From a virus: DNA of 32,000 nt. Numbering within the stretch: the stretch's first letter is position 1; every line of letters begins with the position of its first letter. The stretch spans positions 30,001 to 62,000 of IMG/VR virus record IMGVR_UViG_3300045988_175865. The stretch is one strand, 5' to 3'. Below, piece by piece: positions 11,191 to 32,000 of the stretch. The position numbers and the translations under genes were made by a program. The notes under the pieces are model-generated. The model had not been told where the DNA came from. It made no database searches and saw only the letters and a list, made by a program, of their open reading frames with translations.

Positions 11191-13735
11191 TTAAAAACTA
11201 AATTTATTTTTATTTCTGATATCTTTTACTTCTGTATCTTTTACAGTTGCATCTTTTATTTCTTTTTCTCTTCATGAAAGATAATCTTCATAATTTATTT
11301 CATCAGATTTAGGTAAAGGATAGAACATACCAATACTACCTTTGAAAGCAGACATGATAATTCTATTAGAAATACCATATCTATTTTTAAGAATAATAAT
11401 AGATCTACAAATATCTTGTAAACCATATCCTTCGTTATCATCCATTATTTTATATCCTCTATAACTTTTTAGTTGGGTTTTAAATGGACTAAATAATGCA
11501 ATACAAATATCAGCAGCTTGTAATGGTTCACCTGACTGTTGAATTTCATCCGCAGTAGGCTCTTCCATACCAGCTTTTCTCCTATCCATAGTTGTACTAT
11601 TTCTATTTTCTTGCATTATAATATCAAAACTAGTCTGACATAGTTCTCTAAATCTGACACAATAAGTTGATATAAGATCCATTTCTTCTTTTTTAGTTCT
11701 CCCTTTTTGAGGATTTACTAAAAGTAAATGATCAATAACAACATTAACTATTTGATTAGGATTATTTGGGGTATATATAGTTCTTTTTCCATCAGGACTT
11801 TTTTGAAAGGTTCCTAAACTTTTGTGGAGTTCCATCATTTCTGCATAAAAAGAATCTGCAGAGAGCTGTTTATCATATATAATAAACTTATGACTTATAG
11901 ATTCTAATCACTCACGAGCTTCAATTACATACTTATGTATATCATCTGGTAACTTATTAGTAAATGACATTAATTGCATATATGTAACTTCAATACCATA
12001 AGTTTCATATAAATATAAGCTTAATAATTTCGCCAACAATGTATTAGCACTTAGTTCAAGAGAAAAATAAACTATAATTATATCTTTATCTGGATAATCT
12101 TTTAAAATACGATATATATCTGTATATATAACAAAAGAGCTTTTCAATTTGTTATCTTACTTGCTTTTTATCAAGTAATTCTTATAGTTTCCTATAAGTT
12201 CAGCATATATTTTCATCTCTTTGAGATGTCGGATACTCTTGGGAAAATTATATTCTGTATAACAGGTTCATTTCCTATGCGTTACAATATAAAATAACTG
12301 TTAAATTACTTTATTATCTCGGGGTTAACATGCTTATATACAAAATTTGGATAATTATTCTGTACATATAGTTTAGCCTTCTCCGATATTACCCGATCAT
12401 TATCTCTAAAATCACTTTTAGAGACGGCAAAATTATGATTTTTAAAACACAAATATCTATAATATTTCCTATTTAAATAAATTGTAGAATTTTCATAAAT
12501 TCACTGTAAAAATTTAATACTATTATTTATATTACTTTTTATATCAAATATTAGATCACTTGTTTTATTTGCAACATATCATGTTCATGAAGTATTTGAA
12601 TATACTTCTATATTTTGTAAAATATTTTTAGTTCCAACAATACAACATCTTGGTTTAAAAATATTTTTACTACCTCCATAAGATAAACATCCATCACCAT
12701 CAAAATATCCTCTAATAAAATGTCTTATTAAATCTTTAGATTTAAAAATATTTTCATCAGGAAATTTTAAGACATAACTTTTATTTGGAACACATCCTTT
12801 TTCTATTAGAGCATCTTTAATATGTTTACAAGAAATAGCAAATCTACATCGTTGCAATTTATTATCAGTTCTTGGTAATCTGAAAATATTTAAGGCACTA
12901 TATAATTTTTCTAGATGTTCAATATCATCAATATGTAAATCACATGAGATATGGTAAGAATTTGTAGAAACATTACCATCAGCATATAAAAATCCCAATC
13001 AATATGCTTTTGTTTCTGTGTCTATTACATCAAAAAATGATTCATTTACTGTTTTACGATTTAGGTTGAAATTATGTTTTTTTAGAAACTTTGAAATAAC
13101 ACAACCTTGAGTATTATATAATTTACCTATTTCTTTCAGAGACATACCGTTATTAAAACAATCAATCATATTTTTTAAATCATTTAATTTAAACGTATAT
13201 GATATCCTATTACTTTTATGTGATAAATAAATTCCGCATCGTTTAAATAAATTACCTAATGCAGCAGATGTACAATTGCACAATTTAGAAACAGATTTAA
13301 GTGATATTTCAGGATTTTCATGAAATTTACATAAGGCTTCTTTAACTTTTACATCATTTACTTTATGTTTTCTAACATTCTTAAAATAAAAATCTAAAAG
13401 AATTAAATCTACAGCTTGTTTTGAAATATTTAATTTGTTGGATATTTCAAATGAATTTAAATTTTGTTTTCTTAGTTCTATTATTTTGTTTATCATAGTA
13501 AAAATTATTTTAATTTTTACTACAAAAATAACGCAATTTATTTATATTTACAAATATCTGCGTTGGAAATTATTAATGTTTTACCAACACTACTTTTGCT
13601 GAATATTAACTTATATACACCCTTTTTAAATCCTCCAGTATAAAAATCCAATTTTAAAAGTCCTGTTTTAAGACCTATATTTTTACCTTCTCGCCCGTCT
13701 TCTATTTTAGAATATAATTCACCTACCAAACTCAT
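11191..13735 (-). CDS. DnaB / T7 gp4-like replicative helicase, split by a group I intron (exon 1 13583..13735, exon 2 11191..12144)
   Basis: Exon 1 reads ...GLKTGLLKLDFYTGGFKKGVYKLIFSKSSVG. Joining to exon 2 completes the P-loop as SSVG|KSSFVIY. Exon 2 passes through TGA at 11908 and 11272 to TAA at 11191. Confidence 0.75.
12145..13582 (-). mobile_element. group I intron with LAGLIDADG homing-endonuclease ORF, inserted in the helicase P-loop codons
   Basis: The 5' exon ends GGT| and the intron ends ...GATAACAAATTG| (G at 12145). Core blocks at 12201-12216, 12275-12286 and 12317-12333 are shared with the nrdJ and ferritin introns. The ORF is in a different frame from both exons. Confidence 0.7.
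12306..13496 (-). CDS. LAGLIDADG homing endonuclease with N-terminal HTH repeats (intron-encoded)
   Basis: Track ORFs 12999..13496 and 12585..12998 are in one frame. Motif 1 is KAYW(TGA 12999)LGFLYADGNV and motif 2 is IRGYFDGDGCL. The frame continues through TGA at 12585, 12579 and 12501 to TAA at 12306. Confidence 0.8.
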
Positions 13736-20625: not shown

Positions 20626-21005
20626 TACTCAACAAAATAATTGGAATTAAAAAGCTTAGGATTATGTCTTTTTAAAAGTTTCTTCTCCTTTTCTATCATA
20701 ATACTCATGACTTCATCAGCATAGTCATTTCTACGACCTCCAAAGTTTTCAATAACATGAAACGGATTCTCTAAAGCATTACGCTCAGCAATCTTTCGAC
20801 CAATAGCTTTATTAAAGTTATCTACAGGCTGACATACTGCAAGTCCAAACTTAATAGTATGACTATTATCATCATAAACTGCAGCTATAGTATACCTACG
20901 ACATGGTTTAACATCATAAACAACAGTTTTCTCAATAATAGGATTCACAGAAACAGTGCCTTGATATACAGGAGCACTGTAATAATACTTAACTACTCTA
21001 CTCAT
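20625..21005 (-). CDS. hypothetical protein (pattern reminiscent of the N4 gp49 / Sf6 gp66 family)
   Basis: 126 aa with FGLAVCQPVDNFNKAIGRKIAERNA. The family assignment is from memory of the motif only. Confidence 0.45.
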   Translation of the reverse strand: MSRVVKYYYSAPVYQGTVSVNPIIEKTVVYDVKPCRRYTIAAVYDDNSHTIKFGLAVCQPVDNFNKAIGRKIAERNALENPFHVIENFGGRRNDYADEVMSIMIEKEKKLLKRHNPKLFNSNYFVE

Positions 21006-21042
21006 ATCTTTCTTATTTTTTTATGATTTACATTTTAAATTG

Positions 21043-21291
21043 TTACTTCCTAGAAAGCTTACACCTCCATTTTTCTAGATTTTTACCAAATCTAGCATCA
21101 AATATATAATCACAGTAACTATAATCATTAACTATTGTTCTAGGATTAGGAATATTACAATCAAAGTCTTTATCTTGAAGTTTAAAAAAATTACTTTTTA
21201 AGTAATTCTTTATTCTTCTTTTAACAATTCGATGATAAATATTCTTTATACCTTTATCCTTGTAAACTGGAACCTTATAACTCTTTGACAT
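21043..21291 (-). CDS. hypothetical basic protein
   Basis: 82-aa Lys/Arg-rich ORF, stop TAA. Confidence 0.4.
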   Translation of the reverse strand: MSKSYKVPVYKDKGIKNIYHRIVKRRIKNYLKSNFFKLQDKDFDCNIPNPRTIVNDYSYCDYIFDARFGKNLEKWRCKLSRK

Positions 21292-21313
21292 ATTAAGATA
21301 ATATTAAATATAA

Positions 21314-21817
21314 TTAAGTTACTATATTTTTCATAAATGATATTCTAGCAATGTTTCGTAAATCACTAGATAATACTTTAACAACTATATCTTGTCGGCC
21401 ATTTCTTTGATAATAAGTATATAAAGACCTAGACTTATCTATACTCTTATTTGTTACCTTAGAATCAATTAGTTTAATTATGTCAGTTCGTCTACATACA
21501 ATTCAATCTTTCTCTCCTTCAAATGCTATATAATCAGCCTTTCCAAATAGTCATCCAGGATTTCCTCGAACATTTTTTAGTTCTACTCAGTTGATATTAT
21601 AATCTGGAGTATTATCAGCTCTACGATTTTTTTTTGCGCTCTTGATGTCAAATGTAAAAGTTCTATTATTATATGTTCATATAATATCAATATGATCATA
21701 CATATCTTGATACTTAGATGGAATCTGAACAGTTCCTCCAACCTGAGATAGTAACAATTCAGAAAACTCAGATTCTTTTATCTTTCCTAATTTAGAGCAA
21801 TCTATATATTTATTCAT
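21314..21817 (-). CDS. PD-(D/E)xK nuclease-like protein
   Basis: Start MNKYIDCSKLG at 21817. The frame passes through TGA at 21677, 21587, 21551 and 21503 to TAA at 21314. YDHIDII-W-...FTFDIKSAKK has a D...D-x-K layout. Confidence 0.5.
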
Positions 21818-22073
21818 AATTGTGACCCCATTTTTCAGCTTCTTCAAATGTACTAAAAACAAGATATTCTGGAATCATTGTTACTATATCTTCAAAAGCA
21901 TAAAATATATGAGGACCAGAATCTAAATATGAGACTATAATATCCTTAACTGTTCTAGGAGTAGTATCTACAGTATAAGTATCTACAAAAACTCCTGCTT
22001 CAAATTGATGGGTCTTTTGACAAATAAATACTGTCTGCCCAATATCAAATTTGGTTTCTATACTAATTTTCAT
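21810..22073 (-). CDS. hypothetical protein
   Basis: 87-aa ORF, stop TAA. Confidence 0.45.
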   Translation of the reverse strand: MKISIETKFDIGQTVFICQKTHQFEAGVFVDTYTVDTTPRTVKDIIVSYLDSGPHIFYAFEDIVTMIPEYLVFSTFEEAEKWGHNYE

Positions 22074-22074
22074 T

Positions 22075-22683
22075 TTAGTTATCTATTATTTCAATATATC
22101 TCTGTTTAGGAGTAGTAACGTAAGGATTTTGATCTATAATAATAACTTCTATAACAGTATGTTTTCTAGTAAACCATCGTGGTAGAAACCATTTTCGTGG
22201 TTTAATAGGTTCTTTATGAGAACTTAGAGTTATATACTTTTCATTATTATACTCATTACTTAAAGCTATTGTTCCTGGATAGGAAAGGTGTAGACAACTT
22301 CTGTTTCATTTATCTACAATACAAGTATCTAACACAAACCCAGGTTCTCTAAATATTGTATCTCTAATAACAATAGTATCTTTCTTAGAAAAATGTTCTA
22401 ATTGATATTGTAACGCTTTAATTTTATTATCCTTAACTTTGTTCTCATTAGCTACTTTTTTCATTTTAAGCATTAAAGAATCGCTAAAGTATTCTAATTG
22501 CTCAATTGAAAGCTTAAATACACGATTACTTTCTTTTAATCATGAATTTTCCGCAGCATATGCTTTTTCATTATTTATAGAATTATCTAACGCAATATTC
22601 AGATTTCTAATTTTATTGGTCATAAAAATTATAGCCAATACAAGTAAAGTATAACTTAATATTCTTAAAATTATTTTTTTCAT
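22075..22683 (-). CDS. membrane-anchored coiled-coil protein
   Basis: ATG 22683-22681 overlaps the upstream TAA. The N-terminus MKKIILRILSYTLLVLAIIFM looks like a signal anchor, followed by a heptad-like region. There are two in-frame TGAs (for example 22540-22542). Stop TAA at 22075. Missed by the standard-code track. Confidence 0.55.
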
Positions 22684-23036
22684 TATATTAATTCTCTGTT
22701 AAAAGTTGAAACTACAAAACTTCGGAATAGAATTAAATCTTCTAGAGCATTATCTAACGATGCTACTTGTTTTTTAACTCTTAAATATTTTTCAGTAATA
22801 ATTTGTATAATATTTTTAATATCTCTAATAGAACAAGGATCGTATTCAAACATACATAATCTTCTATTTAAAACACCAATAGGCTCATTTGTTAAAATTA
22901 TAGGAATTCTCTTGTTAGATTGAATTTTTATAACAAAAGGAATAGATCCAAGGTCTACTAATAATTTTAGATATCTTATATCTACATTATTTGGAAATAT
23001 AAATCCTGCCTGTTTAAGATTTCTAGTAATTAACAT
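22683..23036 (-). CDS. hypothetical protein
   Basis: 117-aa ORF, stop TAA. Confidence 0.45.
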   Translation of the reverse strand: MLITRNLKQAGFIFPNNVDIRYLKLLVDLGSIPFVIKIQSNKRIPIILTNEPIGVLNRRLCMFEYDPCSIRDIKNIIQIITEKYLRVKKQVASLDNALEDLILFRSFVVSTFNRELI

Positions 23037-23041
23037 AGTAT

Positions 23042-23073
23042 TAAAAAATAAGGCATTAGAAAACTAATGCCTT
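23042..23073 (-). terminator. rho-independent terminator
   Basis: Perfect 10-bp stem aaggcattag / aaaa / ctaatgcctt (23050-23073). It is followed on the minus strand by AUUUUUU and lies directly after the HNH gene stop. Confidence 0.6.
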
Positions 23074-23079
23074 AATATT

Positions 23080-23649
23080 TTATTGTTTATTAACAGTGTA
23101 TCCATGATGTTCTAAAACTAGTTTACATAAGTTTAAGTACTCTTCTACAGTTAAATCACTTTTAGAATAATTAGCTGCAGGAGTTGTAATACCTAAATTT
23201 GATAAATCATTCGACCCGCCTTTAGAAACTGGTATTATATGATCAAAACAATAATCATCTTTTTCTAAATCAATAGGAGTGCCTGTTAAATAGCACTTTG
23301 TTTTTGTGCCAAATTTATTAATAATATCTAAAGTCTTAATTTTATTTAAACTCTTCATTCCTCTATTTTGAAAATGTTCAATATATCTCCTTAAACGTTT
23401 ACGTCATGTTCTATTAGAGATTCTTCTACATCCATGAGAGATTCTAGCACAAAAAGTACATAGTCTAGATTTAATTCTCCCCTTAAGTGTATTACGTCAT
23501 AATGAAGTAGATTTTCGTTGTTTACTATTAGTTATATCATTACAATAATATCCAACAATACTTTTGCTACATCCAAGTATCTTAGCAATTTCATTATAAC
23601 TTTTATTATCACTTCTTAAAATAAGAATTTGTTCCTTTAACTTACTCAT
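23080..23649 (-). CDS. free-standing HNH endonuclease with N-terminal HTH
   Basis: ATG 23649-23647 lies 14 nt after the tRNA 3' end. HTH is SYNEIAKILGCSKSIVGYY. Two in-frame TGAs at 23497-23499 and 23404-23406. HNH core is CFDHIIPVSKGGSNDLSNLGITTPAANYSK. Stop TAA. Confidence 0.75.
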
Positions 23650-23663
23650 AATCAACTTATTAG

Positions 23664-24101
23664 CACGAGCTCTCCGATTCGAACAGAGACCGTAGGGTTT
23701 GGAGCCCTACAATACGGTTTTGCTTACCACTATAGTTTTCACTACCAGTTTTACTGTTTGTAGTCTGGACTATATCAGCTTGATATACAAGTGTGGCATT
23801 TAGTCTCTACACATTTATAGAGTAAAGTAGGATACATAGAGAAGTGTACGGCTTTAATTTTCGACCTACTAAGCACTCCGCCTATTTTACACGGCATAAA
23901 CAGCCTATGTTCTCTACTGTATTTTACTCTAATTTAGCTCGGTATTATCAGCTATCCATATTTCAGGACCTTAGACTTTCTTAGAAAGCTGATTCGCATG
24001 ATTTTTATCATCTTATTTCGCTTTTACCGAATTTGCCACAATTTTCACGCCAAGCGTGCTCCAATTCGAAGACCGCTGTGCTACCATTACACTAAGCTCG
24101 C
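23664..24101 (-). tRNA. intron-containing suppressor tRNA, anticodon UCA after splicing (tRNA-Trp-like, G73), with a 25-nt extra arm bearing a CUCCAAA loop
   Basis: Exon 1 (24101..24069): GCGAGCU UA GUGU AAUGGUA GCAC A GCGGU CUU. Exon 2 (23722..23664): CAAA ACCGU AUUGUAGGG CUCCAAA CCCUACGGU CUCUG UUCGAAU CGGAG AGCUCGU G. The acceptor stem is 7 bp (G1-U72 wobble). The T-loop is UUCGAAU. U8, A14, GG and A21 are present. No CCA is encoded. Confidence 0.75.
23723..24068 (-). ncRNA. group I self-splicing intron in the tRNA anticodon loop (after U34)
   Basis: P1 is CUU|CG / UGGAG, with a U-G pair at the splice site. P2 is CACGC-UUG-GCGUG. P3 is UGUGGCA (24040-24034) / UGCCACA (23798-23792). P4 is UCGGUA (24030-24025) / UACCGA (23944-23939). 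P7 is GACUA / UAGUC, inside the consensus strings AGAGACUAAAUG and GAUAUAGUCC. P8 is CUUG-UAUAU-CAAG. The terminal G is at 23723. The ligated CUU+CAA pairs continuously with the guide sequence UUGGAG. Confidence 0.75.
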
Positions 24102-24124
24102 ATTTATTATCTTTAGTTATACAG

Positions 24125-24155
24125 CAAAGATAACAAAAATCTGTGAACAATCAAA
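24125..24155 (-). promoter_or_regulatory. candidate Bacteroidota-type promoter (TTTG-N19-TAnnTTTG) upstream of the tRNA
   Basis: The minus strand reads TTTG (24155-24152), 19 nt, then TATCTTTG (24132-24125). The tRNA 5' end is 23 nt further downstream. Confidence 0.35.
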
Positions 24156-24170
24156 AATTTAATTAACAAA

Positions 24171-25376
24171 TTATAAAGAAAATTTGCGAATTTTGGTTAA
24201 ATAAATCTCTTTACGATATTGGTTAACTCCACCATAGTCACCATAACTCATCTGCACTTTACGAAGATGGTATAGCTTACCTCCCTCTAATTTTAATTTA
24301 TCTGCTATATCCTTTGGAAAAGTAAAATCAATAACCTTGTCAACTGTTATTTTTTTATAGTTACTATCCTTTGAATTTATAACATATATTAAGAAAGCAC
24401 TTAATATAAGCAGGTACCACTTAATTTCAGAGTAATCTGTAGTGGGTCTTAAAAATCTGAATTCTACAGTTTTATGGGCATCACCTGAAATTAAATGCAT
24501 TATATTCATATTAAAATATCTACCGTGCACTTCCCACTTACGCTCCTCTGTTGAATCATATGAATTAGGTAAATAAAAACTTTGGTCATCATTATACTTA
24601 TTACCAGTGAACCTTTTGTAGAATGTAGGGAGAGATGCAATACTCGGAAAAGGTTTATTGTAAGCTTTACCATTACTTTTATAGCGTTCTGTATAGTAAC
24701 TATATCTTGGTATGTACATACTAATAGACCATTGAAAATGGCACCAGAACTTACACAGACGATTAATATAACTATTATTAATTGGAAAGTTACCAAAATG
24801 AATATGCAAAGAGCAGTTTTTATCGTAAAACGTGTATCTTTCAAGCAGTTTCAAATGCTGTTTAATAATAGGTAAATCTATATGTGTTAATGGAAAAGTT
24901 ACATATTCATGCCCATTAATTGAACCATCATACAGTGGTACTAGATTTGTATCAATACAACTTAACCAAGGTATGTTTCCTGCGGATGTTTCATATTCAA
25001 GGCCAAAGGTAAAGTCTTCAATATATGTAAATTCTTTATCAGGTATTAATTTAATATACTTAGGTTTTAAAGATAGTTTTGAAAAATTGTAACATCTATC
25101 TATTGGATAATTAAACACATATTTAGAATCTGTAATGATATTATTAGATAGTTTTAAATCTATCGTATAGCAACAAATATTATTTACCCAATATAATGGT
25201 ATTTTGCAGTTCTCGCGTCTTTCCAAATAGGTAATTTTCCCTTCTATTACTAGAGGAATATTTAGTGGGTCTATTTCAAAATAACCATATTCTATATATG
25301 CGTAATCAATATAGATCACACCTCTTAGTAAGGTATCTCCAGTTTCCCACCTTTTTTTAGTATTATTGTACAGCAT
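24171..25376 (-). CDS. glutamine-synthetase-fold amidoligase (Amidoligase_2-like)
   Basis: FTFGLEYETS...LVPLYDGSINGHEYVTFPL...NCSLHIHFG follows the E-x-E / DGS / E-x-V / H-x-H order typical of this family. No in-frame TGA. Stop TAA. Confidence 0.65.
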   Translation of the reverse strand: MLYNNTKKRWETGDTLLRGVIYIDYAYIEYGYFEIDPLNIPLVIEGKITYLERRENCKIPLYWVNNICCYTIDLKLSNNIITDSKYVFNYPIDRCYNFSKLSLKPKYIKLIPDKEFTYIEDFTFGLEYETSAGNIPWLSCIDTNLVPLYDGSINGHEYVTFPLTHIDLPIIKQHLKLLERYTFYDKNCSLHIHFGNFPINNSYINRLCKFWCHFQWSISMYIPRYSYYTERYKSNGKAYNKPFPSIASLPTFYKRFTGNKYNDDQSFYLPNSYDSTEERKWEVHGRYFNMNIMHLISGDAHKTVEFRFLRPTTDYSEIKWYLLILSAFLIYVINSKDSNYKKITVDKVIDFTFPKDIADKLKLEGGKLYHLRKVQMSYGDYGGVNQYRKEIYLTKIRKFSL

Positions 25377-26685
25377 CTAAATTAACAAGTCTATTAGTTA
25401 TAAACTGTAAAATCTGTGTTTCTAGTACTTCAAAATCGAATGTTGTATTTTCTGCATTATTCTTGAAAATTTCAAAAGCGCTAGGAGCATAGGTATATGT
25501 TGTAGAACTTACTCCATCTTTTACATTAACTTTATCAGGAGCATTAAATAGAGTAACATATGATCCTTCCATGTACTTCATATAATTGAAGTCTTTGTCA
25601 ACAGTAGTTAAGACACCATTAATAATTCGAGGATTATATGCAAAGTAATCAATAACTTCGGGACAATAAACAGAAAGAACATCATTTGTAAAAAGGTCAT
25701 CTATATTTTCAAGGAAATCATAACTTTCTTTATTGGGTAACAATCGCCCATAGAAGAAGTAGAAAGTATGTCTATATGCGTTAGAGCTGGCATATGCTTC
25801 GGGTACTAAATGCCCAGAAGGATAAGCTAGATACATACCGTGTGCTGGAATTTCATTTAACATATACGTACCTGTAGTTTGACTGTAATATAAGTTATTA
25901 GAGGTATATGCTGGGGAATTATCCTTATAAGAAGCACCATATACTGGTATGCAAAGGGTTCTCCTTAATTTTTCACGATTAATATTTCTAATACAGTAAA
26001 CCTTGTTATCCTTAATTCGGCATAACTTATTTACAGGAAATTCATAGATTGTTTTTTTACAGTTGATGGAATATAGAGAAGCATACATCGACGAAAAATA
26101 AAGTTTACCCTCGTTAATCATATAAACTAAAGGTCGCTCAGATTTTGTTTTGTTTTCATTATAACAAGAGCTCCCTTTGAACATGAGTACTTCTGGAGTC
26201 AAAGATCTATAATCTACCATTATAAGAACAGCACAACCTGTATATTCTTCTAGAACATCATATCCATGTTCATAAATAATTTCTGCCAAAATTTGAGAAT
26301 CAGACATACCAAGAGTATTAAGTTCTGGAAGATATTTATTAGATAATTCTCCAATATTAAGAATAGTACCATTATGCATTAGTACAAACTCAATTTTGTT
26401 ACCACGTCTAATAACAACTGGCTGAGCCTGATCTAAATTCACAGGATATCCAGGAGAGGCCTTTCGACAATGTAATAAAGCAATAGAAGCTGACTTTGGA
26501 TAATTTATACTAGTAGTAAAGTTCCTAAATAATTTTCTGTCACTGACTCCATATTCTACCTTACCATCAATAAAAATACCACAACTATCTCCCCCTCTTT
26601 CATCGTTTAGGGTTCCAAGTATATTAAAGTGGTTTATGTTAAATTCAGTCTTTTCAGTAGAAATTATTCCAGCTAGTCCGCACAT
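25363..26685 (-). CDS. class II (Ntn) glutamine amidotransferase-like protein
   Basis: N-terminal MCGLAGII (Cys2 nucleophile), then RGGDSCGIF and LLHCRKAS. 440 aa, overlapping both neighbouring genes. Confidence 0.65.
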   Translation of the reverse strand: MCGLAGIISTEKTEFNINHFNILGTLNDERGGDSCGIFIDGKVEYGVSDRKLFRNFTTSINYPKSASIALLHCRKASPGYPVNLDQAQPVVIRRGNKIEFVLMHNGTILNIGELSNKYLPELNTLGMSDSQILAEIIYEHGYDVLEEYTGCAVLIMVDYRSLTPEVLMFKGSSCYNENKTKSERPLVYMINEGKLYFSSMYASLYSINCKKTIYEFPVNKLCRIKDNKVYCIRNINREKLRRTLCIPVYGASYKDNSPAYTSNNLYYSQTTGTYMLNEIPAHGMYLAYPSGHLVPEAYASSNAYRHTFYFFYGRLLPNKESYDFLENIDDLFTNDVLSVYCPEVIDYFAYNPRIINGVLTTVDKDFNYMKYMEGSYVTLFNAPDKVNVKDGVSSTTYTYAPSAFEIFKNNAENTTFDFEVLETQILQFITNRLVNLDAVQ

Positions 26686-27464
26686 ATTCCATAAAGTTTA
26701 ATTAGATGTTCTGCCAGTACTTTATTAGATGTATTAATACACTTTTGAACTAAATCTCCTTCTGGCAAAGGAAATCCTTCATTAAACATATCTACAGCTA
26801 ACATAGTTTGTTTATAAATCATTGGAAGGTATTTGTCATTAAGCATAAAGCTACTTAGACATCTTGCTTCTACTCCCCACTCAGGACAACGGAAACTTCC
26901 TGCTTGACCATATAGAGTTCTTCTAAAAGTATCTCTATCATATAATACAGAAGGAACTCCACAGCATAGATCAAAGAACTTAATAAGCTTAACAGATGTA
27001 TCAAAATTAGGGTTATCATATCCTATGTGAATGTGTGAACCTGCCACTCTTCTATTATCAGGATAACCTTGTGGCTTATCGTTTTCACACTCTGTATAAG
27101 CATCATAATCACTAGAACATCCAATTTCATTTGCTTTAGGATCAAGTAATTGATCTTCAGGCACGGGCATAGATGCACTACAACAAATATCAAGATTGTT
27201 ATCGAATTGTTTAACCCAATTACGAATCCAATCTTTCATATATTTAATAGAATCTACAAATTCATTACTAGAAGTACAAGGTGGGATATTAAATTCTCCT
27301 AAAATACAGTCAATCTCCACACCAAATCCTTTTGGCATGCCTTTAGTATATGGTTTACCTTTTTCTCCTGGAATTATTCCAATTGCAGATACTACTTGGT
27401 TTGTTTTTGTATTAAAAATAAATAACTCGGGGTCTGCTCCAACTGTAATATTTTTAATTTTCAT
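26673..27464 (-). CDS. COOH-NH2 ligase, phage phiEco32-like type 2
   Basis: N-terminal VGADPELFIF, later RRVAGSHIHIGYDNPN. The family assignment is from motif memory. Confidence 0.55.
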   Translation of the reverse strand: MKIKNITVGADPELFIFNTKTNQVVSAIGIIPGEKGKPYTKGMPKGFGVEIDCILGEFNIPPCTSSNEFVDSIKYMKDWIRNWVKQFDNNLDICCSASMPVPEDQLLDPKANEIGCSSDYDAYTECENDKPQGYPDNRRVAGSHIHIGYDNPNFDTSVKLIKFFDLCCGVPSVLYDRDTFRRTLYGQAGSFRCPEWGVEARCLSSFMLNDKYLPMIYKQTMLAVDMFNEGFPLPEGDLVQKCINTSNKVLAEHLIKLYGICAD

Positions 27465-28101
27465 CTGCTATTAATTTATCAATTATTTCATTTATTCTTA
27501 TAACAATTGGTGATTCAGGTCTCATATATTCAGGATGTCCTTGGATAGCCAAACACTTTGGAAGATTTGGTCTGTCATACAAAACAATTTCAGGTTCATA
27601 AGGAGGAGACATAACATTATCTCCCTCATATATACTTGACCGATGACTAGTTGAATAAAACAAACATGTCCAATACTTATATGGTATTATAAATGGATAC
27701 TGCATTTGATGGTGTGTACTGGTAATTTCATACATTTTATTCGTACTTATCTCTGTAATAGAGTGAGTTATTCGAATAGCATGATTTTCCACATTCTGAA
27801 TAAGTATGCCACCATTCATAATACATAAATATTGACTGCCTCGGCAGATCCCCACAGCTAACTGATCAGGTCTGATTTTCTCAAATTCTTTCTTTTCTGC
27901 GAGATCCCTTTGTAAATTAGCACAAGTAGTAGGATGAGGTTTACAGTTATACAAAGAAGGGTGTACATCTTCTCCACCTGTAAAAATAACAATATCTGCA
28001 TCGTTAATATCATCTACTAGCTCACGCTTAGTAATAAAATTAGCATAGTGTACTTGATTACCAACGACATATACTTTTTTTGTTTTTAGCATAGTATTCA
28101 T
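27454..28101 (-). CDS. class I glutamine amidotransferase / peptidase C26 (gamma-glutamyl hydrolase-like)
   Basis: FTGGEDVHPSLY...AVGICRGSQYLCIMNGG...THHQM...IQGHPEY provides the Cys-His catalytic layout. Confidence 0.65.
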   Translation of the reverse strand: MNTMLKTKKVYVVGNQVHYANFITKRELVDDINDADIVIFTGGEDVHPSLYNCKPHPTTCANLQRDLAEKKEFEKIRPDQLAVGICRGSQYLCIMNGGILIQNVENHAIRITHSITEISTNKMYEITSTHHQMQYPFIIPYKYWTCLFYSTSHRSSIYEGDNVMSPPYEPEIVLYDRPNLPKCLAIQGHPEYMRPESPIVIRINEIIDKLIADEN

Positions 28102-28756
28102 TCGCTATAAAATTAATTCCCTTGACAATTTGAGGTAATTGCTTCGAGTTAAATACTCGAAGCAAATGGCACAAACTATTATGTTCAGCCATAATCCTAC
28201 AAAAACTTTCACTATAGTTAAAGTCCCTTCTAATTAAATTAAACTGGCACTTAGGATTAATGTTATAAAATGTTAGGTTATCTAATCCTGGGCAATGACA
28301 TCTTCTTCCATCATGAAACAATGTAATATAAAGTTGCATAATTTGAGTAATATCCAATTCTGGAAAGTTTGCTCTATTTTGCCATGCAGAGTATAATAAT
28401 AACCAAAACGGATTTTCGTATACATATCTAATATATATAGCACTATAGACAAAGAATCTATTGTCAGGAGCACACCTAATTTGTAATTTGTATGAATGTG
28501 TACTCTTTACAAGTGATATTAATGTAAACCCCAGTAGTCTTGAGATTTCCTTAAAGTACTCAATTAATGTTTTCGTATCAAATGTACAGTAGTTAAGCTG
28601 AACTTGTCTACTTCGAGGCCATATAATAGTAGCATAATAATAACCATTAAATTCACCTTGAGAACATCCCCTACTAAAACAAGCCATATTTTCATAAAAG
28701 TAATTACCAGCATAGTAATTACATTTATATTCTTTTCCTCTAAAATCTAGTATCAT
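28058..28756 (-). CDS. hypothetical Cys/aromatic-rich protein within the ligase cassette
   Basis: 232-aa ORF overlapping both neighbours. No motif recognised. Confidence 0.5.
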   Translation of the reverse strand: MILDFRGKEYKCNYYAGNYFYENMACFSRGCSQGEFNGYYYATIIWPRSRQVQLNYCTFDTKTLIEYFKEISRLLGFTLISLVKSTHSYKLQIRCAPDNRFFVYSAIYIRYVYENPFWLLLYSAWQNRANFPELDITQIMQLYITLFHDGRRCHCPGLDNLTFYNINPKCQFNLIRRDFNYSESFCRIMAEHNSLCHLLRVFNSKQLPQIVKGINFIANEYYAKNKKSICRW

Positions 28757-29483
28757 AGTACTTTTTTAAATGATTCCCATAATAAGTTATCCCAAAAGAA
28801 GCCAGAGAAGGAGCTGTATTACTTTCAACAATGATATAACTATTATCACTACACAATATATCAAAGCAGGCAATTGTGAGGTCCATTTGTTTTAATGCCT
28901 TAATACAATCACTAATTATATTTTCCCAACATACAGGTAATTTGTGTTCCTCTGTTACTAAAACAAATATTGAATTATCAGCATGTTTATGCCATTGTAC
29001 TTCAGCGTCTTGTTTCAGCACTTTTTTACAAGCATAAAAACAACCATGATGAACATCAATATGTACTCTATATTCATTTGGGAAGAAGTAATACTTTTCA
29101 AACACGAAATCCCTTATATTAACATTATTACATAGATCGTCTAAAGATTTGGGATTATCAATATAATAAATATTCTTCCCTTTCGATGAATGTTTATGTT
29201 TTGCTATAAGAATTTTGTGCTGCATAAAAAACTTATAAATGCTTGCTTTGTTAGAAGAACTAATCCATTCACTATGAGATACACCCGCTTTGTCAAAGGC
29301 ACGCTTCATTAATATTTTATTCCCAGAAGTTTTAACTCCCTCTATAGTATTAATTTCCAAATATTTATATTTAGAAATTAAAGGAGTTGTGCTCCCTAAA
29401 CGTAGTAGTACTCTTTGATTAAAAGGTATACTACGTAAAGGAGCACAACTTGTATTTGGACTGAAAACTCGAAGTTTTAACAT
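28740..29483 (-). CDS. ATP-grasp ligase (RimK-related)
   Basis: GNKILMKRAFDKAGV...ILIAKHKHSSKGKNIY...EYRVHID...IACFDIL...IVESNTAPSL follows the ATP-grasp order of K-loop, E/R-V-H and E-x-N. Confidence 0.6.
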   Translation of the reverse strand: MLKLRVFSPNTSCAPLRSIPFNQRVLLRLGSTTPLISKYKYLEINTIEGVKTSGNKILMKRAFDKAGVSHSEWISSSNKASIYKFFMQHKILIAKHKHSSKGKNIYYIDNPKSLDDLCNNVNIRDFVFEKYYFFPNEYRVHIDVHHGCFYACKKVLKQDAEVQWHKHADNSIFVLVTEEHKLPVCWENIISDCIKALKQMDLTIACFDILCSDNSYIIVESNTAPSLASFGITYYGNHLKKYYDTRF

Positions 29484-29484
29484 A

Positions 29485-30027
29485 CTATAGTTCTAATGCC
29501 TTATTATAGCAGTACACAGCCAGTTCCTTCTGGGTTAACTTATTATAATCAGCAAATTCAGCCCCATGGTCCTGTAAAAGCTTTGCAATATACTGTAGTT
29601 CGTGTTTTTTTAGTTTGCTAAATTGAGTGGCCGAGAATTCTGCGACCTTCTTATCAAGAGCAATTAATTTGAGGAATACTTTTCCAAATGGTTTATTATT
29701 AAATTTATTAATATATACCTTTTGGTCAATATTATCCTCTACTGGGATAGCTTTAGGTTCAGGGTTAGGAACAACCTCGTCATATGGGATAATCATAAAT
29801 TCAGGTACCCATATGCCTATAGATAGAAAATATGGAATATCTGGGTCATTCTTATCTACATCCTCAATAACAGCAACATTACCAAAATAGGGAAAATCAG
29901 AAAATAAGACATATTTCATGTCTTTGTTACAATAAACACCTTCTAAGTCAGGTGCTTCCTTGAGTAGATTATCCTTAAGTAAACAATCAAGATTTTTAAT
30001 GATAACTTTGTCTCCTTGTTCAAACAT
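29485..30027 (-). CDS. hypothetical protein within the ligase cassette
   Basis: 180-aa ORF, stop TAG, 1 nt upstream of the ATP-grasp ATG. Confidence 0.5.
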   Translation of the reverse strand: MFEQGDKVIIKNLDCLLKDNLLKEAPDLEGVYCNKDMKYVLFSDFPYFGNVAVIEDVDKNDPDIPYFLSIGIWVPEFMIIPYDEVVPNPEPKAIPVEDNIDQKVYINKFNNKPFGKVFLKLIALDKKVAEFSATQFSKLKKHELQYIAKLLQDHGAEFADYNKLTQKELAVYCYNKALEL

Positions 30028-30041
30028 AACTATTTTTATTT

Positions 30042-31118
30042 TTATTTGAAAAATGATAAATATTCTAATGGACTAACAATTCTATATTTAGTCTTTCTAA
30101 ACTCTAAAAGGTCAAAAGAATCTGAATAACTCATCATTGACCTTAAGTAGTCAACGAAATTTTCACACCAATCTTGTAACTTATACAAAACTGGAACTGT
30201 GGTTTCAATACCCTCAGCAGTTTTGAGTTTTTGGTTTCCTATTTCTATCTGTGCTTTTTTAGTAGACATACCATAGTATTTACGTCTGAGTCCTAGATTT
30301 GGATCTGTAACAGGTAGTAACTCTCCACAGGCTTCTTGAGATTGTGCAAAGAGTTTTCCAACCATTACATAATCAGCTCCAAGAGCTAGTGCTTTAATAA
30401 TCTTATCATAATTATCAAATCCTCCGTCCGCAATAATAAATGGAACACTTTTGTATGGATGAGTTATTGAGTTACAACCCAAGTAAAAACCAGAGTCACC
30501 CGCTATATTAACTACTTTTGTTTCTTCAATACATTTTTCTATAGCCCGCTTTTTATCAACAACTTCCTTAATTAAGGAAGCCATTGCATAGTGTATTCCA
30601 CCATTAGCAGAAGTAGTACATACAGAACCTCCCCCTACACCTATCCGTACAAAATCAATTCCTGCTAGTGAATAATCAGCATAAGTATCAGGGTTAGCAA
30701 TATTGCCCGCCATTAATGACAATCGACCTACAAATATAGACTTTGCTTGTGAGCATAAATCAATTAACTTTAACATGTGGCCATTAGCAATATCAACACA
30801 CACATAACGAATATCATTGGTGGTATCATATATATTTTCAAAATCTGTAATAAATCTTTCAAACTCAGATAAGCCAAGTGCAACAAACGTACTTGTAGAC
30901 AACTCCCATCGTTTATCATAATCTACTCCTCTTGGAATAATTGTATTGATCTTATTTCTAAGAAAAACTTCATAATTATTCTCATTAATAACAGAATTCA
31001 TAGGAGCAGTAAATAACGGCAGCATACCATCAAAGTTATATGGATTACAGTCTGCACGATGTTCTATTCTACTGGTTCTAGCTGGTACTAAACAAATATC
31101 ATTTAACCCATATGTCAT
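30042..31118 (-). CDS. IMP dehydrogenase / GMP reductase family protein (GuaC-like, no CBS insert)
   Basis: DICLVPARTS...PLFTAPMNSV...CVDIANGH...GVGGGSVCTTS (catalytic Cys loop)...IADGGF...ALALGADYVMVG. Confidence 0.7.
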   Translation of the reverse strand: MTYGLNDICLVPARTSRIEHRADCNPYNFDGMLPLFTAPMNSVINENNYEVFLRNKINTIIPRGVDYDKRWELSTSTFVALGLSEFERFITDFENIYDTTNDIRYVCVDIANGHMLKLIDLCSQAKSIFVGRLSLMAGNIANPDTYADYSLAGIDFVRIGVGGGSVCTTSANGGIHYAMASLIKEVVDKKRAIEKCIEETKVVNIAGDSGFYLGCNSITHPYKSVPFIIADGGFDNYDKIIKALALGADYVMVGKLFAQSQEACGELLPVTDPNLGLRRKYYGMSTKKAQIEIGNQKLKTAEGIETTVPVLYKLQDWCENFVDYLRSMMSYSDSFDLLEFRKTKYRIVSPLEYLSFFK

Positions 31119-31120
31119 TT

Positions 31121-31261
31121 TTAATCTCTCTTAATTAGTTTATTTTTCTGTTCCTCAGTATCCCTAAATTTTTTTATTTTTCTTTTCTTATTTAGACGAG
31201 CAATCTCTTCCTCGTACCTATTATATTTATCCAATTGATTACCTCGAATAAATTTACCCAT
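31121..31261 (-). CDS. small basic ORF (46 aa), doubtful
   Basis: MGKFIRGNQLDKYNRYEEEIARLNKKRKIKKFRDTEEQKNKLIKRD, with its TAA 2 nt before the GuaC-like ATG. Supported only by position and an open frame. Confidence 0.25.
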   Translation of the reverse strand: MGKFIRGNQLDKYNRYEEEIARLNKKRKIKKFRDTEEQKNKLIKRD

Positions 31262-31291
31262 GATAAAAAACAGAATTTCAATTTTGATTTA

Positions 31292-32000
31292 CTATTGAAT
31301 CTCTAAAGTACCTGGTTCCAGTCCAAGTTCTTTCTCGACTTCTGCGATTGTTTTCTTTACAACCTTATTCTTTACTTTTGGCCAAGCAACATCCATTTTT
31401 GTGTAATCACTAAGTTTAAAACAGTGTGGTGTTGGAACAAAAATCTTCTTAACTTGGTAGAAACTCCCATTTTTAGGGGAATTAAAGCATCCACTTAAAT
31501 AACCCTTAATTTCTCCTTTATTGTTAACATAAACAATAGCTTTAGAAGAAATAATAAATACAAAATACTCTTGATCTTTAACTATTAACTGTACTATTCG
31601 CCCAGGTAAAAACTCAGACTTAAAATCATTATTAAGATTAGAATCTACCTTATTATCCTCAACCTTATTTTTTTCTTTACCTAGAATCTTTTCAAACTGG
31701 TCTATAATAGATATGTCATTTGATTTTAATTCAGGTGATTCAAGTAATTTTAATAGATTCTTTTCTGATTTTAAAATAATATCACTATATAGAGCAAGTT
31801 TATTCTCTTCTATATCATTAATACCTAACTCTTTAAGGATAGTGTTGTCATCATCTGAACAGAAGATATCACTATCTCCAGTAAGGTAATGAATATTCTG
31901 ATTATATGTAACAACATAATAAGATCTTTTATCTGTATCAATTAAGATCTTATAAGGGTGTCCTGAAAGTAATAAAGATATACTTACCTTAGGATAGTTT
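31292..32000 (-). CDS. hypothetical protein (5' end beyond right edge of window)
   Basis: Open minus-strand frame from the window edge to TAG at 31292 (...AEVEKELGLEPGTLEIQ). No in-frame TGA. Not in the track because the start lies outside the window. Confidence 0.5.
   Translation of the reverse strand, partial: NYPKVSISLLLSGHPYKILIDTDKRSYYVVTYNQNIHYLTGDSDIFCSDDDNTILKELGINDIEENKLALYSDIILKSEKNLLKLLESPELKSNDISIIDQFEKILGKEKNKVEDNKVDSNLNNDFKSEFLPGRIVQLIVKDQEYFVFIISSKAIVYVNNKGEIKGYLSGCFNSPKNGSFYQVKKIFVPTPHCFKLSDYTKMDVAWPKVKNKVVKKTIAEVEKELGLEPGTLEIQ

Follow-up and report, generated by a model that had tools for sequence, protein, structure and literature searches.

A predicted phiEco32-type amidoligase module in a crAss-like phage and the intron-split UGA-suppressor tRNA gene at its border

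Introduction

This study concerns eight adjacent genes, and the suppressor tRNA gene that follows them, in a 32,000-nt stretch of DNA from a gut phage (positions 30,001 to 62,000 of the IMG/VR virus record IMGVR_UViG_3300045988_175865), which we call the window and to whose positions all coordinates refer. The genes are named in transcription order, from g8 down to g1. An initial annotation, made from the sequence and a list of its open reading frames (ORFs), had read all eight as one multistep pathway of ligases, amidotransferases and a GuaC/IMPDH-like enzyme that might make an amino-acid-decorated nucleotide or base or modify a protein. Our analysis partitions the locus differently: seven of the genes form a version of a known phage amidoligase module, and g8 belongs to its neighbourhood. 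Few phage enzyme sets without a known product are as widespread as this module, and it also occurs in several Pseudomonas phages that are candidates for therapy.

The cluster can be traced to Iyer, Abhiman, Burroughs and Aravind (2009, Mol Biosyst), and it was later called a "putative peptidoglycan modification module". According to papers that cite it, the prediction was one of cell-wall or peptide modification, possibly directed against superinfection, and it is still the sole account in papers up to 2025. The initial annotation had described the ligases and amidotransferases as families that phages carry together and for which a substrate was yet to be established, which agrees with the papers up to 2025, as these cite only the 2009 prediction.

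Results

Layout of the locus

The eight co-directional ORFs were recovered at exactly the coordinates of the initial annotation, and its overlaps and gaps were likewise all reproduced in our ORF list (Table 1). Going from g8 to g1, a 14-nt gap (30028–30041) and a 1-nt gap (29484) are followed by overlaps of 17, 44, 11, 13, and 14 nt. At least three of the overlaps are anchored by conserved N-termini, namely the invariant MIL of g5, the invariant first methionine of g3, and the MCG of g2, and a start of g4 at its second methionine would shrink the 44-nt overlap to 35 nt. Dense gene packing by itself is usual throughout the window; what goes beyond chance is that the order of the families is kept across 80 independently fetched loci.

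Table 1. Features of the locus in window coordinates, with predicted protein families.
Feature	Position	Strand	Size	Description
g8	30042–31118	−	358 aa	IMPDH/GMP-reductase-family enzyme, GMPR-like, no CBS insert
g7	29485–30027	−	180 aa	N-terminal SH3-like barrel, variable-length linker, C-terminal helical domain
g6	28740–29483	−	247 aa	ATP-grasp carboxylate-amine ligase, RimK/MptN/CofF-like
g5	28058–28756	−	232 aa	Unannotated family; 1–2 copies immediately 5' of the C26 gene in crAss-type modules
g4	27454–28101	−	215 aa	Peptidase_C26/class I amidotransferase-fold enzyme
g3	26673–27464	−	263 aa	phiEco32-type COOH-NH2 ligase (type 2, GCS2/YbdK-like fold)
g2	25363–26685	−	440 aa	Ntn (class II) glutamine amidotransferase domain, residues 1 to ~240; C-terminal domain of ~200 aa
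g1	24171–25376	−	401 aa	Amidoligase_2 (glutamine synthetase-fold carboxylate-amine ligase) with N-terminal extension of ~115 aa
tRNA(UCA)	23664–24101	−		UGA-suppressor gene at the 3' end of the predicted module transcription unit; marks the border between standard-code and TGA-recoded genes
tRNA 5' exon	24101–24069	−
tRNA intron	24068–23723	−	346 nt	Group I
tRNA 3' exon	23722–23664	−
Terminator-like hairpin	23049–23074	−	11 bp	Intrinsic-terminator-like hairpin with T-run; sole strong terminator candidate in 23000–32000

Family assignment of the core enzymes

Profile searches with Pfam, PHROGs, and NCBIfam backed all six family assignments that had been proposed initially. g1 passes the cut-off of Pfam Amidoligase_2 (PF12224) marginally (24.2 bits; cut-off 22) and matches PHROG 2443 "amidoligase" at 1.5e-8, and its motif residues E/E/E/H/H/E/R are kept in 85–88 of 85–88 homologues. 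g2 starts with MCG, the cysteine at position 2 being present in 87 of 87 homologues, as is typical of the N-terminal nucleophile (Ntn) class that its matches to GATase_6 (47.9 bits) and GATase_7 (25.7 bits) indicate; matches to the N-domains of GlmS, AsnB, and PurF are weak, and its C-terminal domain matched nothing in our searches. The assignment of g3 is carried by Pfam COOH-NH2_lig (PF14395; 30.8 bits, cut-off 25) and by a full-length match to PHROG 3815 (9e-55), with D11, E13, E57, R181, E199, and R201 invariant. For g4, Peptidase_C26 (48.7 bits, cut-off 20.5) scores far above GATase (15.5 bits), PHROG 7218 is matched at 5e-29, and the Cys-His-Glu triad of Cys86, His189, and Glu191 is kept in 86–87 of 87–88 homologues. 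We propose from these family matches that g4 hydrolyses gamma-glutamyl groups; alternatively, it may serve as an ammonia donor.

The ATP-grasp protein g6, whose gene adjoins and overlaps g5, matches PHROG 2599 at 6e-21, and its presumed catalytic K/E/R/D/E/N positions are kept in about 55 homologues. Its scores stay below the RimK cut-offs (Pfam RimK, 18.5 bits versus 21; NCBIfam rimK_fam, TIGR00768, 31 versus 143), and the MptN match of 29 bits is also far below. By sequence, g6 is an ATP-grasp ligase, possibly similar in action to RimK, MptN, or CofF, but not a member of the RimK family. Every catalytic or metal-binding residue checked in the module is kept in essentially all homologues (~55–95 per protein), and because the active sites are conserved in this way, we predict that the core proteins are working enzymes. 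PDB sequence searches found no close relative of g1, g2, g3, g4, or g6 among solved structures. Judged by eye alone, no signal peptide or membrane segment was noticed in the translations of the module.

Gene order across phages

A megablast search of the cassette against 50,697 phage records gave no match, and relatives were found at the protein level. A g3 homologue is present in 313 of these records (121 from Pseudomonas, 94 from Escherichia, 22 from Vibrio, and others), and is also encoded in at least 439 IMG/VR stretches. We fetched 80 IMG/VR loci with the COOH-NH2 ligase profile and determined their gene content by tblastn, and 93 loci were used for scans with iterated profiles. Among the 80 loci, g3 was found in 80, g2 in 78, g1 in 77, and g4 in 74, and the order C26, COOH-NH2 ligase, Ntn glutamine amidotransferase (GATase), Amidoligase_2 is always kept where these genes are present; an ATP-grasp gene was detectable upstream in 56 of the 93 loci. 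The same enzyme families recur in the annotated clusters of cr108_1, PA11, CVT22, and UFV-P2, and in all four phages the module lies in the early/replication region, just before primase/helicase genes. On the basis of family content and order, g7–g1 (24171–30027) can be classed as a crAss-type version of the phiEco32-type amidoligase module.

The modules vary at one step in a manner that may be informative. LUZ24-like modules contain no C26 gene and carry an AIG2/gamma-glutamyl cyclotransferase (GGCT) gene after the ATP-grasp gene, and in UFV-P2 and its relatives the AIG2/GGCT gene stands right after the ATP-grasp gene, in place of C26. Counted over the phage records from Pseudomonas, the ligase occurs in 121, GGCT in 105, and C26 in 16, so that the last two counts add up to the first; it was totals that were compared, not individual records. 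This rough complementarity points to gamma-glutamyl removal as a conserved step.

In some relatives (loci L002–L007 and L017–L023), the COOH-NH2 ligase gene, and sometimes the C26 gene, is broken by inserts of 0.26–1.1 kb that are absent from the window. The insertion sites lie after about residue 147 of g3 and between residues 88 and 89 of g4. In L003, the insert in g4 is a genuine group I intron (59 bits, E = 5e-14); the g3 insert of the relatives was not detected by Rfam.

The accessory proteins

The two proteins that the initial annotation had listed as unknowns, g5 and g7, indeed have no match in Pfam, PHROGs, or NCBIfam, but neither of them is an orphan: g5 belongs to a widespread accessory family of such modules, and ORFs with the C-terminal domain of g7 are found again beside ATP-grasp genes. 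Direct searches for g5 gave 16 close relatives, and a profile search over 1.84 billion representatives found 85, the distant ones aligning to the N-terminal ~150 residues; ten distant relatives had no Pfam match. An iterated hidden Markov model, which gave 51 ORF matches in the first round, placed one or two ORFs of the g5 family immediately before the C26 gene in 78 of the 93 loci. The two hypothetical proteins that occupy the same slot in cr108_1 align with g5 in hhalign at probabilities of 76–81%. The AlphaFold2 (AF2) model of g5, with a mean per-residue confidence (pLDDT) of 79 and a predicted TM-score (pTM) of 0.83, retrieved both of them from BFVD by Foldseek (E = 3e-6 and 3e-5, TM-scores 0.64 and 0.45), together with two proteins of another crAss-like virus (overall range of E, 3e-6 to 4e-4), and had no significant fold match in the PDB. 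Across 68 non-redundant members, C26, R110, and E114 are conserved at 96–99%, N55 and P116 at 90%, and H154 at 81%, a residue pattern that fits an active site better than a scaffold and suggests that g5 is catalytic. The family was not detected in PA11, CVT22, or UFV-P2, and a comparison of g5 with ORF009 of PA11 showed no relationship.

For g7, 70 homologues were found. Its AF2 model (mean pLDDT 81 for the whole model, with a disordered linker) gave no significant PDB match in Foldseek. In other lineages, the C-terminal domain is encoded as a standalone ORF of ~70 residues directly upstream of the ATP-grasp gene, and in the 21 of 93 loci with g7-like ORFs, the ATP-grasp gene is always adjacent. 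g7 is thus likely, judging from this gene adjacency, to be a partner or adaptor of the ATP-grasp ligase g6. The 80-aa ORF upstream of the ATP-grasp gene of cr108_1 showed no clear likeness to g7 when compared by eye. As candidates for a RimK- or LysX-type substrate with a C-terminal glutamate, g5 and g7 were ruled out by their C-termini, which are CRW in g5 and L/LNV in g7.

g8 and the NAD-salvage genes

The Pfam IMPDH profile matches g8 at 121 bits, and its 358 residues align with GMPR chains of 360–370 residues. It shares with GMP reductase (GuaC; human GMPR2, PDB 2a7r/2bzn) a TIM barrel without CBS domains, the Cys loop GxGxGSVCTT, the YGMS motif, and the flap glutamate; the alignment to human GMPR2 runs across GGGSVCTT, YGMST, and TAEG, and the cysteine, threonine, and flap glutamate are kept in 20–21 homologues. 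It differs from GMP reductase in an identity of only ~25–30%, in an insert of ~30 residues near residue 200, and in scores far under the equivalog cut-offs of NCBIfam (112 bits versus 397 for NF003470; 101 versus 492 for TIGR01305), so that the sequence marks g8 as a member of the family, not as a demonstrated GuaC equivalog. Its context differs as well, with NAD-salvage and ADP-ribosylglycohydrolase neighbours, and its substrate could therefore be a different one.

The subfamily of g8 is large and present on many contigs of 100–180 kb. In relatives that are ~54% identical, the gene follows genes for isochorismatase, nicotinate phosphoribosyltransferase (NAPRTase), NAD synthase, and two uncharacterised proteins, and precedes an ADP-ribosylglycohydrolase gene; no amidoligase genes were found within 10 kb. 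Conversely, in locus L078 the NAD genes and an HD gene run directly into g7–g1 with no GuaC-like gene between them, and cr108_1 and the cultured phages also have the module without such a gene. The order in the lineage of the window is NAD island, HD, a gene for an uncharacterised 201-aa protein (window 31304–31732), g8, and g7–g1. Because relatives carry either part without the other, g8 and the module vary independently, and g8, though probably co-transcribed with the module, belongs to the adjacent NAD/nucleotide-salvage island. Neighbourhood comparison across phage genomes hence upheld one part of the initial annotation, the amidoligase core, but not the linkage of g8 to that core, and the single eight-gene pathway with a GuaC/IMPDH-like step had to be given up.

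A NAD-salvage set of the Preiss–Handler type was seen upstream of the GMPR-like gene in L008–L010, L017, L078, and L097–L099. It comprises genes for isochorismatase/PncA-like, NAPRTase, NadD-like, NAD synthase, YqeY, NUDIX, and HD proteins, and sometimes an R2K ATP-grasp gene. The end of the window (32000) falls inside this region. More distant relatives have ADP-ribosylglycohydrolase, HAD, AAA, and GroEL genes after the GMPR-like gene. The set, with the IMPDH-family enzyme as a constant member, might serve to restore NAD against host defences.

Genetic code and expression

The nearest annotated phage is the crAss-like phage cr108_1, and the closest relatives are IMG/VR and Logan contigs of 100–176 kb. 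The window has a G+C content of 24–34%, all its long ORFs are on the minus strand, and reading TGA as a sense codon raises the coverage by long ORFs from 24.0 to 30.1 kb. Low G+C content, TGA recoding, and many introns are traits of the Zeta group of crAss-like phages (PMC7886860, PMC12386605), and the window matches them. That TGA encodes tryptophan in this group is taken from the same literature; the TGA positions of the window were compared with cr108_1 proteins, and at 25–31% identity the encoded amino acid is not readable from them.

The cassette is free of this recoding. It contains 0 TGA and 21 TGG codons, versus 42 TGA and 41 TGG in the rest of the window (Fisher p = 6e-6), and the initial annotation was right in stating that it can be read in the standard code and adjoins a recoding tRNA. 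The code boundary lies at the tRNA gene in the window and in nine relatives: reading TGA as sense adds 0–7 points of coverage upstream, where the NAD island, the GMPR-like gene, and the amidoligase module are found, and 15–35 points downstream, where the replication genes lie (loci listed for the comparison: L002, L003, L005, L007, L010, L017, L051, and L085; in the window, 1–23650 versus 24171–31999). Recoding here reaches replication genes and not late genes alone, the primase with 6 TGA codons being an example.

The terminator-like hairpin (AAGGCATTAG...CTAATGCCTTATTTTTT) directly follows the tRNA gene in L002, L003, L017, and L085, and in the window an HNH gene intervenes. A sigma-70 promoter scan found 47 sites versus 51.5 expected and thus no enrichment, a result that carries no weight in either direction for this host range. 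We infer that the NAD island, g8, and the module share a single transcription unit and can be translated ahead of suppressor production, and from codon usage the module is probably expressed early. The standard-code "code-change" units described by Borges et al. are consistent with this arrangement.

The intervening gene in the window (23083–23649, minus strand) encodes an HNH homing endonuclease with a helix-turn-helix domain and has two in-frame TGA codons. It is absent at that place in relatives, some of which have an HNH-like ORF inside the tRNA intron.

A tRNA gene at the code boundary

Neither ARAGORN nor Rfam at gathering threshold found a tRNA or other RNA in the window, and a wider Rfam scan by E-value of 21000–32000 gave only a chance miRNA match. 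The suppressor tRNA gene emerged when the sequence was read and a 551-nt stretch was scanned; the standard tools missed it because a group I intron splits the gene. The intron is matched by Rfam Intron_gpI along the whole length of the model, with a score of 18.5 bits (E = 0.023) that stays under the gathering score, and after splicing in silico ARAGORN recognised the sequence as tRNA(tca), split after U34. The 5' exon recurs in 44 IMG/VR contigs, of which 29 are interrupted at the same site by inserts of 346–707 nt and eight are intron-less, with the junction exactly as predicted (GGTCTT|CAAAACCG). A copy 85% identical to the intron of the window occurs elsewhere in relatives, for example at L002 4427–4719.

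All 37 of these contigs have an extra stem-loop, which is a long variable arm of the tRNA (window 23681–23712, minus strand; alignment columns 48–66). Its loop, YCUCCAAAR, is invariant and presumably repeats the anticodon loop of tRNA-Trp(CCA), whereas its stem covaries: among 14 distinct sequences, five of six pairs show compensatory changes, with good support in four, and pairing holds in 96% of cells versus 81% in shuffles. Most versions of the tRNA have A1-U72 and G73, and the real anticodon arm is also Trp-like. On these features, the suppressor looks to be derived from tRNA-Trp, and the extra arm might be a decoy Trp anticodon arm that keeps charging by tryptophanyl-tRNA synthetase while the UCA anticodon reads UGA. 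We found no description of such an arm in the literature searched. Suppressor tRNAs have been reported as not findable in many opal-recoded Zeta crAss-like phages and in 65% of TGA-recoded phage genomes (PMC7886860, PMC12386605, Borges et al.), and intron-split tRNA genes may explain part of this gap. For some readers, the suppressor tRNA may be of more interest than the cassette itself.

Other genes of the window

The remaining annotated genes are those of replication and nucleotide metabolism; they encode an SF1 helicase, a dUTPase, a split class II ribonucleotide reductase, a PD-(D/E)XK-like protein, a Toprim primase, an AAA_24/Sak4-like ATPase, a DnaB_C protein, a LAGLIDADG endonuclease, an SNF2-type helicase, a metallophosphatase, a ferritin, an RNase H, and an HNH endonuclease. 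The two pieces of the ribonucleotide reductase (3339–4757 and 5064–5876, minus strand) correspond to positions 8–213 and 226–522 of the Ribonuc_red_lgC profile, the break of ~300 nt (4758–5063) following right after the NPCG motif. It is probably another intron, and the reductase of cr108_1 is annotated as split as well; Rfam gave nothing for this gap at gathering threshold. A LAGLIDADG-type endonuclease ORF with four in-frame TGA codons (12309–13496, minus strand) lies beside a short DnaB_C-like ORF (11194–11979), which suggests that the replicative helicase gene is also broken by a mobile element (11194–13496).

Discussion

We propose that g7–g1 encode a cytoplasmic, ATP- and glutamine-dependent pathway that would build, and then trim, a gamma-glutamyl or peptide-type amide conjugate on a small-molecule amine or carboxylate acceptor, and we hold this reading tentatively, with a probability of roughly 0.45. 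The ligases g3 and g1 (glutamine synthetase (GS) fold; GS/GCS2-type) and g6, the latter together with the helical domain of g7, would each turn a carboxylate into an acyl phosphate and then couple it with an amine, so that up to three successive amide bonds could result, at least one of them of gamma-glutamyl type. Glutamine would be hydrolysed by g2, its ammonia amidating an activated carboxylate, and the C26 enzyme g4 would take off the gamma-glutamyl group, like PuuD or a gamma-glutamyl cyclotransferase. g5, with its conserved Cys, Arg, Glu, and His, would be a further catalytic component, and the whole standard-code block could be translated ahead of the co-transcribed UGA-suppressor tRNA. 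The chemistry and the order of these steps are modelled on the known chemistry of the families. A small molecule is the favoured target because the Pfam scan of the window gave no nucleic-acid-modifying partner, no signal or membrane segments were seen by eye, and most characterised relatives act on small molecules. These relatives include GS, GCL, and YbdK, PuuA and PuuD, PurF, GlmS, and AsnB, and MptN and CofF.

Several points weigh against this proposal. The ATP-grasp gene is absent from ~40% of the loci sampled, most modules of Escherichia phages have no detectable C26 or GGCT gene, and one Alcaligenes phage carries both. The gene order in PA11 and UFV-P2 differs from that in the IMG/VR loci, and fixed pairs of GATase and ligase can thus not be assumed; for this reason, we did not adopt the heteromers (g4 with g3, g2 with g1) that the invariant order had suggested. 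The early timing is deduced from codon usage, the role given to each enzyme is an analogy, and the literature searched contains no experimental substrate, product, or phenotype for any member of the module. The borders with other readings would also be soft, as RimK modifies a protein and peptidoglycan precursors are "small molecules" as well.

One such reading places the target in the cell envelope: the ligases and amidotransferases would build or alter a peptide on peptidoglycan precursors, by extra amide-linked residues or by amidation of iso-glutamate or meso-diaminopimelate, and the changed surface or wall would block superinfection. The three ligases have a counterpart in the stem peptide, whose unusual peptide linkages are also three in number, MurT/GatD and AsnB1/LtsA are precedents for peptidoglycan amidation with both GATase classes, the inferred early expression would suit superinfection exclusion, and Firmicutes are among the predicted hosts of Zeta-group phages. 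Papers that cite Iyer et al. (2009) ascribe this reading to that work, and later genome papers repeat it. We nevertheless consider it unlikely, since in none of the loci examined is the module accompanied by a Mur ligase, transpeptidase, flippase, or membrane component, the module always lies among replication and nucleotide genes and not among lysis or envelope genes, and the literature searched offers no experimental support. Furthermore, the pair of amidoligase and Ntn GATase also occurs in viruses assigned to Poseidoniales archaea, which to our knowledge have no murein. Rather less probable still is a modification of proteins, in which the RimK-like ATP-grasp enzyme and the GS-fold ligases would tag a protein of the host or of the phage (ribosomal, polymerase, or defence protein) with glutamate or a peptide during host takeover, and the C26 enzyme would trim the tag. 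The nearest named relatives of g6 are indeed RimK-family alpha-L-glutamate ligases, and PHROGs label it "ribosomal protein S6 glutaminyl transferase"; the small C-terminal domain of g7, always encoded beside the ATP-grasp gene, recalls the protein substrate or carrier of the LysW/LysX system; and linked ligases have been proposed in the literature to modify proteins in phage conflict systems. However, the RimK matches of g6 lie far under the family cut-offs, g7 and g5 do not end in the conserved Glu/Asp that RimK or LysX use, an Ntn amidotransferase and a gamma-glutamyl cyclotransferase are atypical for such systems, and the frequent lack of the ATP-grasp gene speaks against a tagging function, too.

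The proposal of the initial annotation, in which the module and the GuaC-like enzyme would jointly yield a purine nucleotide decorated with an amino acid, or a hypermodified base of DNA or RNA, now appears very improbable. It could point to the position of the module among replication and nucleotide genes in every lineage examined, to the GuaC-like gene next to it in ~10 related loci, and to metagenomic clusters for thymidine hypermodification in which Pfam matches to amidoligases and amidotransferases have been noted. The independence of g8 removes its main support, and no nucleic-acid-binding domain was detectable in the module proteins. A Pfam scan (E ≤ 1e-3) covered 38 ORFs of at least 90 aa, including all eight cassette genes and leaving out the 120-aa ORF 549–908, in the 32 kb of a genome of ~100–170 kb. 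Within this part, no DNA-base-modifying enzyme was found, be it a hydroxymethylase, a 5-hydroxymethyldeoxyuridine (5-hmdU) kinase, an aGPT-Pplase-like, TGT/DpdA-like protein, a glycosyltransferase, or a methyltransferase, and the ORFs also contained none of the markers of thymidine-hypermodification clusters of the 5-HMUDK/aGPT-Pplase type (5-hmdU kinase, aGPT-Pplase, dUMP hydroxymethylase). A further idea, which we regard as improbable, is that the module, with g5 as the step that determines specificity, makes a new glutamine- and glutamate-derived amide conjugate as a counter-defence molecule—for example a modified nucleotide or a cofactor, NAD, or ADP-ribose derivative—in the pre-suppressor phase, together with the NAD island.

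The conjugation pathway on a small molecule that we favour refers to an enzyme set that was already known, widespread and functionally uncharacterised. What is new here is that g8 is taken out of the pathway, that the module is seen to include the g5 family and the g7 partner domain, that gamma-glutamyl removal is argued for as a step, and that the module is placed in a standard-code block ahead of the suppressor. The problem is narrowed by these results: a GMP-reductase-like gene is removed, and a sixth, apparently catalytic family (g5) and a small ATP-grasp partner are added. The cultured carriers phiEco32, LUZ24, and PA11 make the question of the product experimentally testable, and they are better suited for this than the uncultured phage studied here.

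Among known systems, the phiEco32-type module is the closest. It has in common with the version in the window the type 2 COOH-NH2 ligase, Amidoligase_2, Ntn GATase, class I/C26 GATase-fold enzyme, and ATP-grasp enzyme, encoded co-directionally in the early/replication region of tailed phages. Homologous clusters in phiEco32-like, LUZ24-like, and PA11-like phages, judged from the 313 phage records with a g3 homologue and from the inspected clusters of cr108_1, PA11, CVT22, and UFV-P2, place the window version in the same group. Compared with the module as later papers describe it, the window version differs in its fixed order of ATP-grasp, g5, C26, ligase, Ntn GATase, and Amidoligase_2. It further adds the g5 family and the g7 partner, neither of which was detected in PA11, CVT22, or UFV-P2, and it is part of a block free of TGA, with a suppressor tRNA at the end.

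More distant likenesses can be seen to characterised enzymes of bacteria. In the Puu pathway of Escherichia coli (the GS-like ligase PuuA and the C26 hydrolase PuuD) and with the PauA enzymes of Pseudomonas aeruginosa, amines are gamma-glutamylated and the group is later removed by a PuuD-type enzyme. The window resembles these systems, at the level of superfamilies, in the pairing of a GS-fold ligase with a Peptidase_C26 enzyme, and is unlike them in having two divergent GS-fold ligases, an ATP-grasp enzyme, and an Ntn amidotransferase, with no oxidase or dehydrogenase steps. The butirosin side chain is made with a gamma-glutamyl protecting group on a carrier protein that is added, processed, and removed, by means of the ATP-grasp enzyme BtrJ and the gamma-glutamyl cyclotransferase BtrG. 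UFV-P2/LUZ24-like modules are reminiscent of this, with their ATP-grasp gene beside AIG2/GGCT, as are the crAss-type modules with a small protein encoded beside the ATP-grasp enzyme, whereas g7 has no features of an acyl carrier protein, a pyridoxal phosphate-dependent or monooxygenase partner is missing, and removal in the window would be by C26 and not by GGCT. Finally, MurT/GatD and AsnB1/LtsA combine a glutaminase with ATP-dependent activation of a carboxylate to give a carboxamide, and between them represent both GATase classes; the activating subunits of the module would be of the GS fold or ATP-grasp type instead of Mur-ligase or PP-loop enzymes, and they stand in a replication-gene and not in an envelope context.

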